Shown here piece after piece: positions 1 to 52,313 of a stretch of 64,000 nt of DNA (its first letter is position 1; each line of letters opens with the position of its first letter). This DNA is from Chloroflexota bacterium (GTDB lineage: Bacteria; Chloroflexota; Chloroflexia; Chloroflexales; Roseiflexaceae). A program made the translations under genes and the position numbers. A model generated the notes under the pieces. That model ran no database searches. It was not told where the DNA came from and saw nothing but the letters and a program-made list of their open reading frames with translations. The stretch lies in assembly GCA_013388755.1 (NCBI GenBank), contig JACAEQ010000036.1, forward strand, positions 1 through 64,000, in the 5' to 3' direction.

Positions 1-112
1 ACACCCCAACTCCCCCGCTGGGGGAGAAGCCGGTCTCCCGCCTCCAGCGGGGGCGGGCTGGGGTGGGGGCGAAGAGCTTATTTGAAAGGTACTGGTCGTA
101 GGGCAACTGCCG
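1..112. repeat. Family-A GC-rich hairpin repeat, diverged/partial copy at window edge
   Basis: CCCCC(N3)GGGGG palindromes plus ...GGGGTGGGGGCGAAGAGCTTATTTGAAAGGTACTGG... resemble the right arm of the element at 35503-35657 (GGGGTGGGGGTGACGGGCGTATGTGAAAGGTAGTG). Confidence 0.45.
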
Positions 113-10853: not shown

Positions 10854-10900
10854 TGCGCCCGGCGATTGGCAAGAACACGTCGTTGCCAGTGTACGTAGTG

Positions 10901-11050
10901 CCTCTCCGAATAACGGATTGGATGTCATTGCGCGCGAAGCGACGCAATCGAGCGGCGCGAGCGGAGATTGCGTCAGCTACGCGTCGCTCGCTGCAGGCTG
11001 TCGCTCGCGCTCCGCGCAATGACAGGCGGCGTAGCGTTGTTCGGATAGGC
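10901..11050. repeat. Family-B intergenic imperfect-palindrome repeat (copy B1)
   Basis: CCGAATAACGG...GTCATTGCGCGCGAAGCGACGCAA...GCGCTCCGCGCAATGAC...CGTTGTTCGGATAGG; arms are mutually reverse-complementary; homologous copies at 13716, 19686, 47941, 51897. Confidence 0.75.
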
Positions 11051-11120
11051 TAACGATCAGGCCAGCCTGCCGGATGTGGCATGCCTGGCCTCCTGTGATC
11101 GATGGCATTCAGTGGCACTC

Positions 11121-12297: not shown

Positions 12298-13701
12298 ATG
12301 ACCATTCCATCGGATACGTTCATAACCGATCCAGCCGGTGTGTTGCCAGTTCCTGGCCCGCGCGCCGAGGCGCTGGTCGCCCGCGATCATAAGGTCTATG
12401 CTCCGTGCATGGGACGCGTTTACCCCTTCGTGATGGAACGCGGCCAGGGGTGCGAGGTGTGGGACGTTGATGGTCACCGGTATCTCGACCTCAATGCCGG
12501 GATTGCCGTTGTCTCAACCGGGCACTCCCACCCGCGGATCGTGCGCGCCATACAGGATCAGGCAACGCGGTTCGTTCACATGGCTGCCACCGATTTCTAC
12601 AATGAGCCGATGATCCGGCTCGGGGAACGACTCACGGCCACCATGCCGCGCCAGTACGCCTGGCAGGCGTTCCTGACCAACTCCGGTACCGAGTCGATCG
12701 AAGCGGCAATTAAACTGGCACGCTACGTGACCGGCCGCCAGGGAATCATCGCCTTCTTTGGCGCGTTCCACGGCCGTTCATACGGCGCCCTCTCGCTCAC
12801 CGCGTCAAAGCCGGCGCAGCGCCGCGGCTATTACCCGCTGGTCCCCGGCTCGTTTCACGCCTTCTATGCCAACCCATACCGCCCGCCTTTTGGCGTCGAT
12901 CCTGCGCGGGTGACCGAGGTCTGCCTCTCGTACATCGAGGACACATTGCTGCACACGGTTGCACCGCCACGCGATGTTGCGGCCATTGTTGTGGAACCCA
13001 TCCAGGGTGAGGGTGGCTATGTGGTTCCCTCGCCCGGTTTTCTGTGCGGGTTGCGCCAGTTGTGCGACCAGTACGGCATCCTGTTGATCCTCGATGAGGT
13101 TCAGAGTGGTGTTGGCCGCACCGGTACGATGTGGGCCTTTGAGCAGGAATGCCCTGCGGATGAATCCGGTGCATGCGCCACCTGCAACCGCGCACAACCG
13201 ATCGGATGCGTGCCCGATATTCTGGCCACGGCCAAGGGGCTCGGTGCCGGCATGCCAATCGGGGCGATTGTAGCGCGCAAGGATCTCACTGAGTTGTGGG
13301 AGCCCGGCTCGCACGGCAATACGTTTGGCGGCAATGCCCTGGCATGCGCCGCAGCCAATGAGGTGCTCGACCTGGTGCAAACAGAGCTGGCGGCCAATGC
13401 TGCCCGGGTTGGCACCCATCTGCTCCGTGGGTTGCGCGAGTTGCAGCAACGCTATGACGTCATCGGCGATGTGCGTGGGCGTGGACTGATGATCGGTGTG
13501 GAATTCGTCAAGGATCGTGCGACACGCGAGCCGGCGCGCGCGCTGGCCCACCAGGTGATGGAAGAAGCGTTCCATCGTGGCCTGCTGATCCTGACCTGCG
13601 GCACATCTACGATTCGCTTCTGTCCGCCGCTGGTGCTGACCGAAGCGCAGGCGGACGAGGGCCTTGCCAGGTTTGAGGCGGCGCTGCGCGCGAGCCTGTG
13701 A
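12298..13701 (+). CDS. Class-III pyridoxal-phosphate aminotransferase (GABA/acetylornithine aminotransferase family)
   Basis: VVSTGHSHPRIVRAIQDQ, LILDEVQSGVGRTG, ATAKGLGAGMPIGA (PLP-Lys); AGGAGG RBS; contains an atypical 18-aa Cys-rich insertion. Confidence 0.88.
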   Translation: MTIPSDTFITDPAGVLPVPGPRAEALVARDHKVYAPCMGRVYPFVMERGQGCEVWDVDGHRYLDLNAGIAVVSTGHSHPRIVRAIQDQATRFVHMAATDFYNEPMIRLGERLTATMPRQYAWQAFLTNSGTESIEAAIKLARYVTGRQGIIAFFGAFHGRSYGALSLTASKPAQRRGYYPLVPGSFHAFYANPYRPPFGVDPARVTEVCLSYIEDTLLHTVAPPRDVAAIVVEPIQGEGGYVVPSPGFLCGLRQLCDQYGILLILDEVQSGVGRTGTMWAFEQECPADESGACATCNRAQPIGCVPDILATAKGLGAGMPIGAIVARKDLTELWEPGSHGNTFGGNALACAAANEVLDLVQTELAANAARVGTHLLRGLRELQQRYDVIGDVRGRGLMIGVEFVKDRATREPARALAHQVMEEAFHRGLLILTCGTSTIRFCPPLVLTEAQADEGLARFEAALRASL

Positions 13702-13715
13702 GGAGCGCGCTTCAC

Positions 13716-13770
13716 GCTGTCGCTTGCGCTCCGCGCCATGACAACAGGCGTAGAGTCTTTCGGATAGGGC
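13716..13770. repeat. Family-B repeat, half copy (right arm, B2)
   Basis: GCTGTCGCTTGCGCTCCGCGCCATGACAACAGGCGTAGAGTCTTTCGGATAGGG matches the right arm of B1. Confidence 0.6.
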
Positions 13771-14292
13771 CTAACTGACGGTATACGCCGGCGGCGGTGT
13801 CTGTGGCCGCTGGCGTACCGCCAGCCAGCCGCCGAGCGCGCCGAGCGCCAGAGAGAACAGCAGATGGAACACGCCAGCGCAGAACCCGATAACCGGCCCC
13901 ATCACCGTCACCAGGCCGCGAATATCGTCATCGGTCAACCCTGAGGCCGGTTGTTGCTCCTCAATCTGTCGCAGTACCTGCTCGAAGAGCGCCGGATCGC
14001 TCTGAACAATCATGAACGCAACGATCCAGAAAATAACCGACCCGACAAGAGCGCCGACACCGGCGACCGCTCCGGCAAGCGTACCGCTGCCGATCCCGGC
14101 AGCCTCGCCACCCCAGCGCACACCAACATAGCCTGCGATTGCACCCACTGCTATGCTTGCCACTGGCCCGCAGCAAAAGACCCCGACCGCCGGGACGAAC
14201 GACAGGCCGGCAACGGCGACAAGACTGACCAGCGCGAATATGAGGCCGGATTTGAGACCGCCGGACATGCTCCCCCTCCTCACGCAGAGCAC
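13771..14292 (-). CDS. Gly/Ala-rich integral membrane protein, function unknown
   Basis: 173 aa, 4-5 hydrophobic helices rich in G/A/V; no recognisable catalytic motif. Confidence 0.5.
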   Translation of the reverse strand: MLCVRRGSMSGGLKSGLIFALVSLVAVAGLSFVPAVGVFCCGPVASIAVGAIAGYVGVRWGGEAAGIGSGTLAGAVAGVGALVGSVIFWIVAFMIVQSDPALFEQVLRQIEEQQPASGLTDDDIRGLVTVMGPVIGFCAGVFHLLFSLALGALGGWLAVRQRPQTPPPAYTVS

Positions 14293-19658: not shown

Positions 19659-19685
19659 GAGCCTGTTCGCACACGATACGCCTCG

Positions 19686-19807
19686 TGTCGTTGCGCGGAG
19701 CGTCAGTGACCGCCTGCAGCGGGCGACGCGTGGCTGAAGCACTCTCCGCTCGCGCCGCTCGATTGCGTCGCTGCGCGCAATACTATCCCATCCGTTATTC
19801 GGATAGG
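19686..19807. repeat. Family-B repeat (copy B3, inverted orientation)
   Basis: TCGATTGCGTCGCTGCGCGCAATAC...CCGTTATTCGGATAGG is the reverse complement of the B1 left arm. Confidence 0.7.
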
Positions 19808-19841
19808 CACCATGCGCGTTCCGGGTCCGTTGCGCCTGCGT

Positions 19842-34715: not shown

Positions 34716-35108
34716 TCAAACATCAAGGACGACCCAGGCGCGCCGGTCACGCTTTGCCAGCGGCGGTGGATCCGTGAGCAGAGCGATCTCGCCCAGCCAG
34801 AGCAGCACCGCGTAGCGGCAGTCGCACACCTGCGCGCTGAACCCATCGTCCAGGCAGAGCCCGTCGGCATACCGGGCAATCAGGTCGGTCATAGCGTGCG
34901 GTGTCAGATCGGCGAACTCGGCGACGCGCTCGACACGCGCGGATGCGACGATCGGGCCGCCGGCACGTTTCAGAAGCAATTGATCGGCTACGGCAACCCT
35001 GCCATACGGCGCTGCGCGAATGCGCAGAAAACGCGACTCGATCGTCTTTTCGCCCGAGAGCACGCGGCTCAGATATGGCTCACGCAGAATAGCGAGGTGA
35101 AGCGTCAT
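34716..35108 (-). CDS. ASCH-domain protein
   Basis: MTLHLAILREPYLSRVLSGEKTIESR... typical ASCH beta-barrel N-terminus; start re-set. Confidence 0.6.
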   Translation of the reverse strand: MTLHLAILREPYLSRVLSGEKTIESRFLRIRAAPYGRVAVADQLLLKRAGGPIVASARVERVAEFADLTPHAMTDLIARYADGLCLDDGFSAQVCDCRYAVLLWLGEIALLTDPPPLAKRDRRAWVVLDV

Positions 35109-35206
35109 GCAACTTTCACCATGCCGGGTTCGTCGTAAGGGCAGAAAGGAGCGCGACGGCCACGGTGCCCTGCAATCGTCAAACCGGGCCGCGCGAAACG
35201 ACAATA

Positions 35207-35506
35207 ATGGAACAGCGTCAACTTCGTCGCAATCGCAGCGATCGCATTCTCGGCGGGGTCGCTTCAGGTCTGGCGCGTATGCTGAACGTCGATCCGGTTT
35301 TCGTACGGCTGGGCTTTCTGTTTCTTGCCTTGATCAACGGTTTCGGCGCGCTCATCTACATCGCGATGTGGCTCCTGGTTCCCGCCGACGACAGCCACGA
35401 AACCGACCCCCGGGCGCAGATGCGCGAGAACGTCGCCGATATGCAGCAGGTCGCCGAGGAATATGTCGCGCGGGTGCGCAGCATGTTTACCGCGCCGAAC
35501 AACTAG
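35207..35506 (+). CDS. PspC-domain protein (phage-shock protein C family)
   Basis: RSDRILGGVASGLARMLNVDPVFVRLGFLFLALINGFGALIYIAMWLLVP. Confidence 0.75.
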   Translation: MEQRQLRRNRSDRILGGVASGLARMLNVDPVFVRLGFLFLALINGFGALIYIAMWLLVPADDSHETDPRAQMRENVADMQQVAEEYVARVRSMFTAPNN

Positions 35507-35657
35507 AACCAATACCTTTCACATCAGGCGTTCTGCACCGCACAGCCCCCCACCCAGCCTCTCCCCGCCGGGGGGAGGAGTCGGACTCCCTCCCCCGGCG
35601 GGGGAGGGCCGGGGTGGGGGTGACGGGCGTATGTGAAAGGTAGTGCAACTAGAACAA
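35503..35657. mobile_element. Family-A MITE-like nested-hairpin repeat (copy A2), CTAGAAC at both ends
   Basis: Flanked by caaCTAGAAC direct repeats; terminal inverted repeats ...CCTTTCACAT / ATGTGAAAGG...; two internal G/C palindromes CCTCTCCCCGCCGGGGGGAGG and CCCTCCCCCGGCGGGGGAGGG; left end overlaps the pspC TAG stop. Confidence 0.7.
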
Positions 35658-35759
35658 CGATAGAGTATTCAGAAACGAGAGTCCCTATGGGCCGGCGGCC
35701 CGAACCACCTCAAAATTACAACACTCGACCGGCGCTCCAGCACCAGCAGCATGCCGCCA

Positions 35760-36947
35760 TTACACGGTTTCGACGGCAACAGCAATCGCTTCGCCGCCGC
35801 CAAGGCACAACGCTGCAATGCCGCGCCCGCCACCGCGCAGGCGCAGCGCATGGATGAGCGTCACCAGAATGCGCGCGCCACTGGCGCCGATCGGGTGCCC
35901 CAGCGCAATCGCCCCACCGTGCACATTCAGCCGGTCGCTATCCAGCCCCAGCGCGCGAATATTCTGGACAACCTGAGCCGCGAATGCTTCGTTGATTTCG
36001 AACAGGTCATAATCATCAATCGTCGTTGCGGTATGGGCGAGCAGCCGCTGGATCGCGTAGACCGGCGCGGTAAACACCTCACGCGGCGGAACTGCCGCCT
36101 GCGCAGCGCCAATCAGCCGCGCCAGCGGGCGCGTGCCAAGTTCTGCGGCGCGCCCCGCACTCGTCACCACCAGCGCCGCTGCGCCATCGGTCAGCCCGGG
36201 GGCATTGCCGGCCGTCACGGTACCTTCGGATGAAAAGACTGGCGCAAGTTTGCTGAGCGCTGCCACACTGGTGCCGCGACGCGGCGGTTCATCGGCAACC
36301 GGCCCGCCAGCGCCACGCCCGATGGACGGATCGAACGGAGCGATCTCCTCAGCAAATGCGCCATTGTCCTGCGCAGCAACCGCGCGCGCCTGCGACTCGG
36401 CGGCATAGGAATCCTGCTGTTCGCGCGTAATGCCATACGTGCGCGCCGTCCAGTCGGCGGCGCTCCCCATATGCTGATGTTCGAAGGCACACCATAACCC
36501 GTCGTGAATCAGCGCATCGGTCAGTTCGCCATGGCCGAGACGATACCCGCTACGCGCTTCAGGCAAGAGGTACGGCGCGCGGCTCATACTCTCCATACCA
36601 CCGGCAACGATCAACGAAGCATCGCCAGCGCGGATGAGTGCCGCCGCCAGCGTCACTGCTTTCAGGCCGCTGCCACACACCTTGTTGATGGTCAGCGCCC
36701 CGACGGATGCCGGCAGGCCGCCACCGATGGCCGCCTGGCGCGCCGGCGCCTGGCCAAGCCCGGCGCCGACCACGTTCCCCATGATACATTCATCCACCAG
36801 CGCCGGGATAATACCCGCGCGCGTAACCGCGGCACGCACCGCATGCGCGCCCAGCTCTGTTGCCGCCATATTGCGCAGCATGCCCTGGAACTTACCGATC
36901 GGCGTACGCGCGGCGCCAATAATGACGATATCATCTGCTCCTTGCAT
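35760..36947 (-). CDS. Acetyl-CoA C-acetyltransferase (thiolase II)
   Basis: Thiolase signatures incl. active-site Cys context [12 protein letters not shown]-terminal [12 protein letters not shown] and [10 protein letters not shown]. Confidence 0.9.
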
Positions 36948-47321: not shown

Positions 47322-47933
47322 ATGTCGCAACCCGTCATTCTGGCAACCGACCTCGAAGGCGTCCTCGTTCCGGAAATCTGGATCGCCGTGGCGGAACGCT
47401 CCGGCATCGAACAGTTGCGTCTGACAACACGCGACGTTCCTGATTATGATGAATTGATGCGCGGGCGTATGGCACTTCTGCGCGCACACGGCCTGACACT
47501 GGCAGATATCCAGCGCGTCATCGGGACGATTGACCCGTTGCCGGGAGCAGCTGAGGCGCTGGCGCGCCTGCGCGAAGTGACGCAGGTGATCATTCTATCG
47601 GATACATTTTACGAGTTTGCCATGCCACTCATGGCAAAGCTCGGCTGGCCGACGCTCTTCTGCCATACACTTGAGGTCGACGGCGACGGTATGATCGCCG
47701 GTTATCGCCTGCGCCTGCCGGACAGTAAAACCGCCGCCGTGCACGCACTGCGCGACATCCGGTTCCGCGTCCTGGCCGTCGGCGACTCCTACAACGATAC
47801 CGGCATGCTGGCAGCAGCCGACGCAGGCGCGCTGTTCGAGCCGCCGCCGAATGTGATCGCCGATTTCCCGCAGTTCCCCGTGCTGCGCAGTTACGACGAT
47901 CTGCTGGCATTTGTTGAACGCGAACGGCAATAA
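47322..47933 (+). CDS. HAD-superfamily phosphatase, ThrH-like (phosphoserine phosphatase / homoserine phosphotransferase family)
   Basis: [39 protein letters not shown]...[27 protein letters not shown]...[12 protein letters not shown] closely follows the ThrH pattern recalled from Pseudomonas. Confidence 0.75.
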
Positions 47934-47940
47934 GAGCCTG

Positions 47941-48072
47941 TCCAAATAACGGGTTGGATGGCATTGCGCGCGAAGCGACGCAAGCGGAGATTGCTTCAGC
48001 CACGCATCGCTCGCTGCAGGTTGTCGCTCGCGCTCTGCGCAATGACATAAGGCGTCGCGTTGTTCGGATAGG
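47941..48072. repeat. Family-B repeat (copy B4)
   Basis: CCAAATAACGGGTTGGATGGCATTGCGCGCGAAGCGACGCAAGCGGAGATTGC...GCGCTCTGCGCAATGACATAAGGCGTCGCGTTGTTCGGATAGG. Confidence 0.75.
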
Positions 48073-48087
48073 CACGAAACAGCTTCC

Positions 48088-51621: not shown

Positions 51622-51649
51622 CGACCGCACCTGGCGCGTGAGGCGCTCT

Positions 51650-51838
51650 GTCTAGAACCAATACCTTTCACATACGCCCGTCACCCCCACCCCGGCCCTC
51701 CCCCGCCGGGGGAGGGAGTCCGACTCTTCCCCCTGGCGGGGGGAGGTCGGGTGGAGGGATCTGTTCCACCAAAGGTGAACGTGTTCTTTGAGTCCGACTC
51801 CTCCCCCCAGCGGGGGGAGGTCGGGTGTGTCTAGAACT
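51650..51838. mobile_element. Family-A MITE-like repeat (copy A3, two hairpin modules), CTAGAAC at both ends
   Basis: tgtCTAGAACCAATACCTTTCACATACGCCCGTCACCCCCACCCCGGCCCTCCCCCGCCGGGGGAGGGAGTCCGACTC is the reverse complement of the A2 right arm; second module CCTCCCCCCAGCGGGGGGAGG; ends ...gtgtCTAGAAC. Confidence 0.7.
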
Positions 51839-51896
51839 GTTCACACGTCTCCTGGGAGCACAGGTGTCCAGGTGCGTTTACGAAGATTCAGACGCC

Positions 51897-52195
51897 ACCT
51901 GTCAGTGCGCGGAGCGTCAGCGACCGCCTGTCAGTGCGCGGAGCGTTAGCGACCGCTTGCAGCGAGCGAAGCGTGGCTGAAGCAATCTCGGCGGAGACGG
52001 GAGATTGCTTCGCTGCGCGCGCAATGACCTGAAAGATGGGAGCTTGCGTCGCTGCGCGCGCAATGACCTGAAAGATGGGAGCTTGCGTCGCTGCGCGCGC
52101 ACTGACAGCCAGATGCCGCCCGTCAGTGCGTGGAGCGTTAGCGACCGCTTGCAGCGAGCGAAGCGTGGCTGACGCAATCTCCTCGCTGCGCGCGT
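51897..52195. repeat. Family-B repeat array (copy B5) with internal tandem duplications
   Basis: CTGTCAGTGCGCGGAGCGT(C/T)AGCGACCGC x2; 36-39-nt unit GCGCGCGCAATGACCTGAAAGATGGGAGCTTGCGTCGCT x2; ...GCGTGGAGCGTTAGCGACCGCTTGCAGCGAGCGAAGCGTGGCTGA... x2. Confidence 0.7.
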
Positions 52196-52313
52196 GGTTT
52201 CGCCGGCAGAGCTGGCGAAAACCACCACCCAGGAAGCGACGTACCGCTCTGCCGAAGGCAAGAGGAACCATGACGCGAATCGCCCGTCACGACGATCGCG
52301 CAACGCGCCTCAT

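Follow-up and report, generated by a model that had tools for sequence, protein, structure and literature searches.

A probable 136-bp MITE with a 10-bp target site duplication at the pspC stop codon, and its multi-copy family in Roseiflexus-like bacteria

Directly 3' of a pspC-domain gene in the window, i.e., the whole 64-kb stretch of DNA analyzed here, lies a segment of palindromic DNA, which raises the question of what this segment is and how it came to be located at the stop codon of that gene. Our analysis led to the reading that it represents a MITE, i.e., a non-autonomous DNA transposon, with 136 bp and no coding capacity, which arrived recently, is flanked by a 10-bp target site duplication (TSD), and is one of many copies of a family in Roseiflexus-like bacteria, designated family A here (rough probability 0.9). 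The pspC-domain gene (35207..35506, plus strand) starts with an ATG at 35207 and encodes 99 aa, the exact protein being recorded with PF04024, and its TAG stop codon (35504-35506) is found inside the left copy of the 10-mer CAACTAGAAC (35500..35509). The second copy of this 10-mer was identified at 35646..35655, which confirms the direct repeat with CTAGAAC on both sides that an earlier note on this DNA had described at the pspC stop. Between both repeats, the element itself (copy 1, subfamily A1) occupies positions 35510..35645 on the plus strand and was recovered over the full profile by nhmmer with E = 1e-40. It is thus located in the spacer between pspC and a convergent thiolase gene (35760..36947, minus strand), an ORF with PF00108/PF02803 detected on its orthologue.

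Copy 1 is bounded by terminal inverted repeats (TIRs) of 15 bp, namely CAATACCTTTCACAT on the left (35510..35524), where an IS4-like end signature runs to about 35528, and ATGTGAAAGGTAGTG on the right (35631..35645), which differ by one mismatch and are conserved in 32 aligned copies. Inward of the TIRs, spacers of 21 nt on the left and 10 nt on the right are followed by a C-rich subterminal box CCCCCCACCC (35546..35555) and a G-rich subterminal box GGGGTGGGGG (35611..35620), respectively, which pair with each other. Both internal G/C hairpins sit between these boxes, i.e., hairpin 1, CCTCTCCCCGCCGGGGGGAGG (CCTCTCCCC-GCC-GGGGGGAGG, 35558..35578), and hairpin 2, CCCTCCCCCGGCGGGGGAGGG (CCCTCCCCC-GGC-GGGGGAGGG, 35588..35608), all of these parts being given on the plus strand. 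On either strand, the 136-nt core was predicted to fold at about -93 kcal/mol compared to -63 +/- 4 for dinucleotide shuffles (z = -7.7 and -7.9; 0/200 shuffles as stable), and the large palindrome with two G/C hairpins reported previously therefore stands, with z near -7.8. With regard to coding capacity, no ORF is confined to the 136 bp, and copy 1 is crossed by ORFs of 53-178 aa on both strands of the G/C palindrome. The closest family members are 94-96% identical to copy 1, e.g., 95.6% for the copy at L065 6156-6291. A canonical G-quadruplex motif, GGGGGAGGGCCGGGGTGGGGG, was also detected in the window at 35600-35620 (consensus 91-111) with loops of 1, 2, and 1 nt; it is composed of the 3' arm of hairpin 2 and the G-rich box and is present on a single strand only.

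Judged by pspC homologues, the window stems from a Roseiflexus-like member of the Roseiflexaceae. Contigs encoding identical PspC were then compared with respect to the presence of the element. Filled alleles (the window, L001, and L006) read ...CAACTAGAAC(136 bp)CAACTAGAAC|AACGATAGAG, whereas empty alleles in five assemblies (L002, i.e., GCA_053496155.1, L003, L004, L005, and L007) carry one CAACTAGAAC and no element, with the reading ...GCCGAACAACTAGAAC|AACAATAGAG (also given as ...GCGCCGAACAACTAGAAC|AACAATAGAG). Flanks of filled and empty alleles are 98.9-99.9% identical. Since such near-identical flanks enclose a single CAACTAGAAC without the element, the filled allele represents a true insertion with a 10-bp TSD. 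The bases next to the two copies of CAACTAGAAC are unlike (A/G on the left, C/A on the right), and because the repeat ends where its copies differ, the duplication comprises exactly 10 bp and the gain 146 bp. The comparison of empty sites in related strains, which had been proposed as a way to define the length of the TSD, thus gave a clear value.

The same alleles bear on a further reading, in which the pspC-thiolase spacer has had the segment since ancestral times as a structural or terminator sequence, or else acquired it by site-specific recombination with CTAGAAC as a fixed core. While the position of the segment between convergent genes and the CTAGAAC common to copies 1 and 2 would be in line with this, the near-identical close relatives are empty, so that the condition named in the earlier note as refuting an insertion, a sequence that is ancestral rather than inserted, does not apply, and the pspC-thiolase spacers of more distant Roseiflexus genomes (L008-L018) are unrelated. 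Moreover, the duplication extends to the three bases preceding CTAGAAC, which read CAA at copy 1 and TGT at copy 2, and other copies of the family occur without CTAGAAC, so that we regard this reading as hardly conceivable. In the empty-site relatives, pspC already ends with ...AACAACTAG and thus with the same stop. As the target 10-mer already held the stop codon, the TAG of pspC is native target DNA and the gene was left intact. It had been claimed that the left repeat supplies this stop; the TAG does lie in the left repeat, but it was not contributed by the element. A staggered cut at pspC would have spanned the stop, with the left copy of the TSD preserving the reading frame.

Copy 1 is present in some assemblies and absent from others, and its nearest family members share about 95% identity with it, which indicates recent activity. 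The empty allele could in principle reflect precise excision rather than the ancestral state; mobility is demonstrated either way. As a separate feature of this spacer, the empty-site locus L002 (3246-3281; also L003 and L005) harbors an extra 36 nt, GGTTTCTGATGCGGCGCGGCTTCGCCGCGCCGCATC, which completes a 19-bp hairpin between pspC and the thiolase gene. The MITE-bearing window lacks these 36 nt, and only the AGAAAC end of one arm is left (35670-35676).

To what extent is copy 1 part of a family? Genomes and metagenomes were scanned with an exact pattern consisting of one TIR plus the C-rich box, the flanks being unconstrained. Among species-representative genomes, four true members were found, all of them in Chloroflexales MAGs (Oscillochloris, two Chloroflexaceae, and one Chloroflexales), and the Roseiflexus species representatives yielded no copy with the exact pattern, which reflects either a patchy host range or an over-strict pattern. 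The same pattern resulted in 62 metagenome loci, about 50 of them from JGI metagenome Ga0272446, a sample which also contains an empty pspC site. Pairing of TIRs led to 38 pairs, 36 of which were scored after those too close to a contig end had been excluded. Full copies revealed a modal length of 136 bp within a family range of 120-237 bp, a TIR consensus of 15 bp (CAATACCTTTCAAAT), and CAATACCTTTCA.AT as the true element ends. Based on these copies, subfamilies A1 (136 bp, including copy 1 of the window), A2 (136 bp), and A3 (120-122 bp) were distinguished. Overall, family A comprises at least three subfamilies with dozens of copies in one Roseiflexaceae population and diverged relatives in other Chloroflexales. 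As no description of MITEs in Roseiflexus, Chloroflexi, or Chloroflexales was found in the literature, the family appears to be undescribed so far, the kind of element being an ordinary one.

Flanking 10-mers agree at no fewer than 8 of their 10 positions in 31/36 full copies and perfectly in 17/36, compared to 0/36 copies with at least seven matches in the control, i.e., the next 10 nt outward. The duplicated 10-mers vary by copy, with CACTTAGACG, GATTTAGTAC, and GCCCTAAATC among others, and an element-oriented position matrix yielded the target consensus GNYCTAGRNC, a palindrome centered on CTAG, to which CAACTAGAAC and TGTCTAGAAC are two good matches. The latter flanks copy 2 of the window on both sides (51649..51658 and 51828..51837), in agreement with the CTAGAAC repeat noticed there before, and an identical TGTCTAGAAC TSD is found in another context at locus L039. 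CTAGAAC occurs four times in the 64-kb window, a number which is unremarkable alone (2.1 expected), but its placement is remarkable, as every occurrence flanks copy 1 or copy 2. With flanking 10-mers that vary and a palindromic target consensus, CTAGAAC has to be regarded as a preferred target and not as an end of the element; what had been taken for shared element termini is host target DNA, and other copies are flanked by different 10-mers. In pairs of unequal TSDs (L038, L045, L049, L071, L081, L043, and L051), the change is mostly found at the central TA, CTAG being converted to CTGG or CCAG. Very-short-patch repair is credited with CTAG depletion by decay of this kind.

A GC-rich, palindromic, intergenic, and multi-copy sequence would also suit a REP/BIME-like palindrome (RAYT, Y1 transposase) or an element of the IS200/IS605 type. 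REP/BIME sequences with RAYT share with family A the nature of GC-rich extragenic palindromes, often between convergent genes, but they possess no terminal inverted repeats and no target duplication, and IS200/IS605 elements likewise have no inverted-repeat ends and no duplication. In comparison, 31 of the 36 scored copies of family A show a 10-bp TSD, the TIRs comprise 15 bp, and the gain relative to the empty site is a clean 146 bp, which makes both identities highly improbable. Thus, a RAYT-associated REP/BIME was rejected based on the TIRs and the 10-bp TSD, and an IS200/IS605-type element, with hairpins instead of TIRs at a fixed motif, based on the TIRs and on duplicated 10-mers that vary by copy. 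Accordingly, two proposals of the earlier note have to be dropped, namely the REP-like alternative, given the clean filled/empty polymorphism together with TIRs and TSD, and the pairing with IS200/IS605-TnpB, given TIRs, TSD, and IS4-like ends. Its main suggestion, a non-autonomous transposable element with inverted-repeat ends, TSD, and target preference, is borne out by the empty sites, the TIRs, and GNYCTAGRNC.

Regarding the transposase, we favor the view that family A was probably derived from, and is moved in trans by, a transposase of the IS4 family, an assignment based on two sequence features, the similarity of the ends and the length of the TSD. According to Table 1 in PMC2266710, IS4-subgroup ends follow the pattern -AATR--------WTW---- and their direct repeats measure 10-13 bp, and the ends of IS4Sa follow CA------T, its direct repeats measuring 8-10 bp. 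Duplications in the IS4 family measure about one helical turn, compared to 4-6 bp for IS701, ISH3, and IS1634 and, specifically, 4 bp for IS701 (PMC2266710). The family-A end consensus CAATACCTTTCAAATAAGG agrees with the IS4 subgroup at 7/7 specified positions, the less specific IS4Sa signature fits equally well, and the 10-bp TSD falls inside the ranges of both IS4 (10-13) and IS4Sa (8-10). Aligned in register from the first base, CAATACCTTTCAAATAAGG matches the ends of E. coli K-12 IS4 at 13/19 (TAATGCCGATCAGTTAAGG, the right inverted repeat) and 12/19 positions (TAATGCCAGTCAGTTAAGC), and 12/19 or more was reached in 13 of about 16,000 random registers of the IS4 locus, with the IS4 ends themselves counted.

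A search for an autonomous partner in about 700 kb of collected loci revealed no TIR pair enclosing an ORF, the TIR pairs 0.4-6 kb apart being only two unrelated copies, and with InsG, the IS4 transposase of E. coli, as the query, tblastn against the same loci gave nothing below E = 1. All-vs-all BLAST of the loci detected no IS, but only Lon-protease paralogues and a second MITE family. Furthermore, there was no match in the plasmid collection, and the 34 matches obtained by scanning IMG/VR with the TIR were all chance hits in AT-rich phages.

Movement by a transposase outside the IS4 family, i.e., of another or an undescribed DDE family with 10-bp staggered cuts, is possible though doubtful. 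It would agree with the lack of a partner in the TIR-pair and InsG searches of these 700 kb, the 13/19 likeness to the IS4 ends could be convergent, and the CTAG/YTAR-centered target is less IS4-like. Targets of this kind are more typical of IS5, IS701, IS630, and IS481 than of IS4, but the duplications of these four families comprise 2-6 bp, not 10. Thus, the families suggested by the target make shorter TSDs (4 bp in IS701; PMC2266710), and the 7/7 signature positions and a TSD length within the IS4 range also speak against a non-IS4 transposase. In the preferred case of an IS4-family enzyme, a DDE transposase of the IS4/IS4Sa subgroup, encoded elsewhere, would bind the ends of about 19 bp, excise the element, and join it to the target, the two strands of which would be cleaved 10 bp, i.e., about one helical turn, from each other. 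Repair of this staggered cut would then create the 10-bp duplication, and the symmetric target may mirror a symmetric transposase dimer.

For the location of insertions relative to genes, a rough codon-usage gene caller was applied to 540 kb of the population, which resulted in 406 genes. From a total of 31 insertions, 12 were found at the stop codon of a called gene, including those at pspC and of copy 3, 18 were intergenic, and one was located within a called gene. Stop codons account for 28/134 of the PWM-matched non-genic YTAR sites, so that their enrichment among insertions corresponds to an odds ratio of 2.5 (p = 0.028). YTAR sites as a whole are scarce, the 540 kb containing 489 of them. 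Landings at stops and in spacers are most simply explained by a target with TAG/TAA, by the purging of genic insertions, and by a TSD that keeps the stop; insertions would therefore be observed mainly at stop codons and spacers owing to the target sequence combined with selection against genic insertions.

Besides, we identified a second MITE family, family B, with a length of 133 or about 158 bp, TIRs GWGCCTATCCGAA...TTCGGATAGGCWC, GC-rich internal palindromes, and a 3-bp TAA/TTA TSD, a duplication as typically made by some elements of the IS5 family or of Harbinger-like type. In the window, it is present at 10898-11052, 19660-19810, 47933-48073, 13670-13775 (partial), and 51880-52205 (a cluster), and 29 further copies were found outside the window (loci L033-L092). 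Family-A elements are located exactly at family-B ends in about 10/29 family-B copies, which represent a second hot spot (L034 534-834; L084 5165-5464; L073 88-372; L066 3758-4057 and 12582-12744; L041 9645-9982; L058; L059 9225-9388; L074). The family-B terminus ...GGCTC followed by its own TAA/TTA duplication forms a near-ideal family-A target, GCTCTAAGNN.

The internal hairpins raise the question of whether family A has a function at gene ends. Across 32 aligned copies, 95.7% and 97.6% of cells are paired in local hairpins 1 and 2, respectively; one long stem, in which the hairpins would pair with each other, was rejected, with about 80% pairing and some positions that never pair. In hairpin 2, one compensatory change from T-A to G-C was detected between subfamilies (17 UA : 12 GC), a covariation which probably represents a single evolutionary event. 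Diverged members (L019, L061, L068, and L025) have other hairpin sequences but keep the pairing, and constraint apparently acts on the twin-hairpin architecture. Probably, the hairpins persist because they aid mobility or render insertion harmless. An intrinsic (rho-independent) terminator was also considered and rejected, as the element contains no GC hairpin with a U tract; scanning for promoters and terminators (35100-36000) revealed no U-tract terminator in or beside the element, and the whole window gave no match in Rfam at the gathering threshold.

Such an architecture could also be explained if the MITE had been co-opted as a 3'-end module, the transcribed hairpins stabilizing or terminating the upstream mRNA, so that selection would account for both the hairpins and the landings at stop codons. 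For 12/31 insertions, the stop triplet in the center of the TSD indeed doubles as the stop of a called gene, the hairpin architecture is kept across diverged members, and the MITE-bearing window is devoid of the 36-nt native spacer hairpin of its empty-site relatives. However, there is no U-tract terminator within or beside the element, insertions showed no preferred orientation with respect to the upstream gene (5 same : 9 opposite, p = 0.42), and the stop-codon enrichment is modest and expected from a TAG/TAA target with purifying selection. In addition, insertion at the end of a family-B element, as seen for about 10/29 of these elements, does not place a family-A copy at the end of a gene. 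Taken together, we consider such co-option unlikely. A bolder version would see in family A more than a selfish MITE, namely a portable 3'-end, insulator, or stabilizer module acting through its TAG/TAA target, twin hairpins, and the G4-type motif, which would have functionally replaced the native 36-nt hairpin in the window strain; this proposal is quite unlikely.

Compared with known systems, the selfish non-autonomous element preferred here resembles E. coli K-12 IS4 in its ends (13/19 between CAATACCTTTCAAATAAGG and TAATGCCGATCAGTTAAGG, and the -AATR--------WTW signature) and in a TSD of about one helical turn (10 bp vs. 12 bp in K-12 IS4). This likeness consists of ends and TSD length; unlike IS4, family A has no transposase gene, comprises 136 bp instead of 1.4-1.65 kb, and shows a CTAG-centered palindromic target and a G/C-hairpin interior. 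MIC231 elements of Bacillus cereus are IS231-derived, non-autonomous derivatives of the IS4 family, which are mobilized in trans via shared ends and generate duplications of about 10-12 bp. Family A is similarly non-autonomous with a TSD of about 10 bp, but MIC231 carries passenger genes and CAT ends of the IS231 type, whereas family A is non-coding with IS4-type ends. Among bacterial MITEs, Correia and RUP elements duplicate TA. Family A shares with Correia of Neisseria, RUP of S. pneumoniae, ERIC/IRU, and MITEAba12 a small size, TIRs, a TSD, the lack of an ORF, and many copies, as well as intergenic location, a strong predicted fold, insertion in or beside other repeats, and insertion polymorphism among strains, features of bacterial MITEs reviewed in PMC10969869 and PMC11602168. 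With 10 bp, its TSD reaches the upper limit of the 2-10 bp reported for MITEs (PMC11602168), and its two discrete internal hairpins, the pairing of the C-rich and G-rich boxes, and its thermophilic Chloroflexales host set it apart from them.

For a previously unannotated repeat of Roseiflexaceae and other Chloroflexales, the exact ends, the length of the TSD, the consensus of the target, and three subfamilies are now defined; copies of this repeat could pass for terminators, sRNAs, or REP elements. Short-read contigs often end inside family-A copies (L001, L006, L029-L031, and many Ga0272446 loci), and the family is thus a systematic cause of assembly breaks and under-represented in these MAGs. 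The polymorphic insertion at pspC provides a strain marker for Roseiflexus-like populations of the hot-spring-mat type and demonstrates recent activity of a transposase able to move family A. The CTAG-centered 10-bp target and the hot spot at family B give an example of target choice shaping the survival of an element. Nothing in these data alters the understanding of the MITE mechanism, and their use lies in annotation and strain typing.

Using nhmmer with the family profile, exactly three family-A loci were detected in the window. Copy 3 (1..94, plus strand) is a 121-bp A3 member, the left part of which lies beyond the window start; it aligns to L059 3855-3975 (nhmmer E = 2.8e-23) and is followed by the right TSD GTCGTAGGGC (95..104), which is present on both sides of the intact L059 orthologue. 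Hence, what had been listed as a degraded copy at 1-112 consists of the right 94 nt of this intact member, cut by the window start, and its TSD. Copy 2 (51659..51827, minus strand) is inverted relative to copy 1 and carries a 74-nt internal duplication, i.e., a tandem duplication of the hairpin module (51716-51789 and 51790 onward). Its arm, previously termed an exact reverse complement, proved to be 89-91% complementary over 108-113 nt of copy 1. The metagenome relative L093 keeps the right end, ...GGGTG-GGGGGCGGTGCGGTGCAGAACGCCTTATTTGAAAGGTATTG|TGTCTAGAAC (...GGGTGGGGGGCGGTGCGGTGCAGAACGCCTTATTTGAAAGGTATTG|TGTCTAGAAC), and therefore copy 2 of the window must have lost 41 bp including the right TIR by deletion, its right TSD being confirmed by L093. 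The left junction of copy 2 is also present in the close relatives L029, L030, and L031, whose contigs break inside the copy, and this common junction shows copy 2 to be older than copy 1. No empty site for copy 2 was found, as the close relatives are filled and the next relative (reductase with 88% protein identity) is without synteny. Upstream of hairpin 1, L093 is wholly unlike copy 2 of the window, a divergence that points to either a rearrangement or an assembly error across the repeat. Directly downstream of copy 2, three family-B-like tandem units of 39 nt, AGAYGGGAGMTTGCKTCGCTGCGCGCGCAATGACCTGAA, were identified at 51995-52111.
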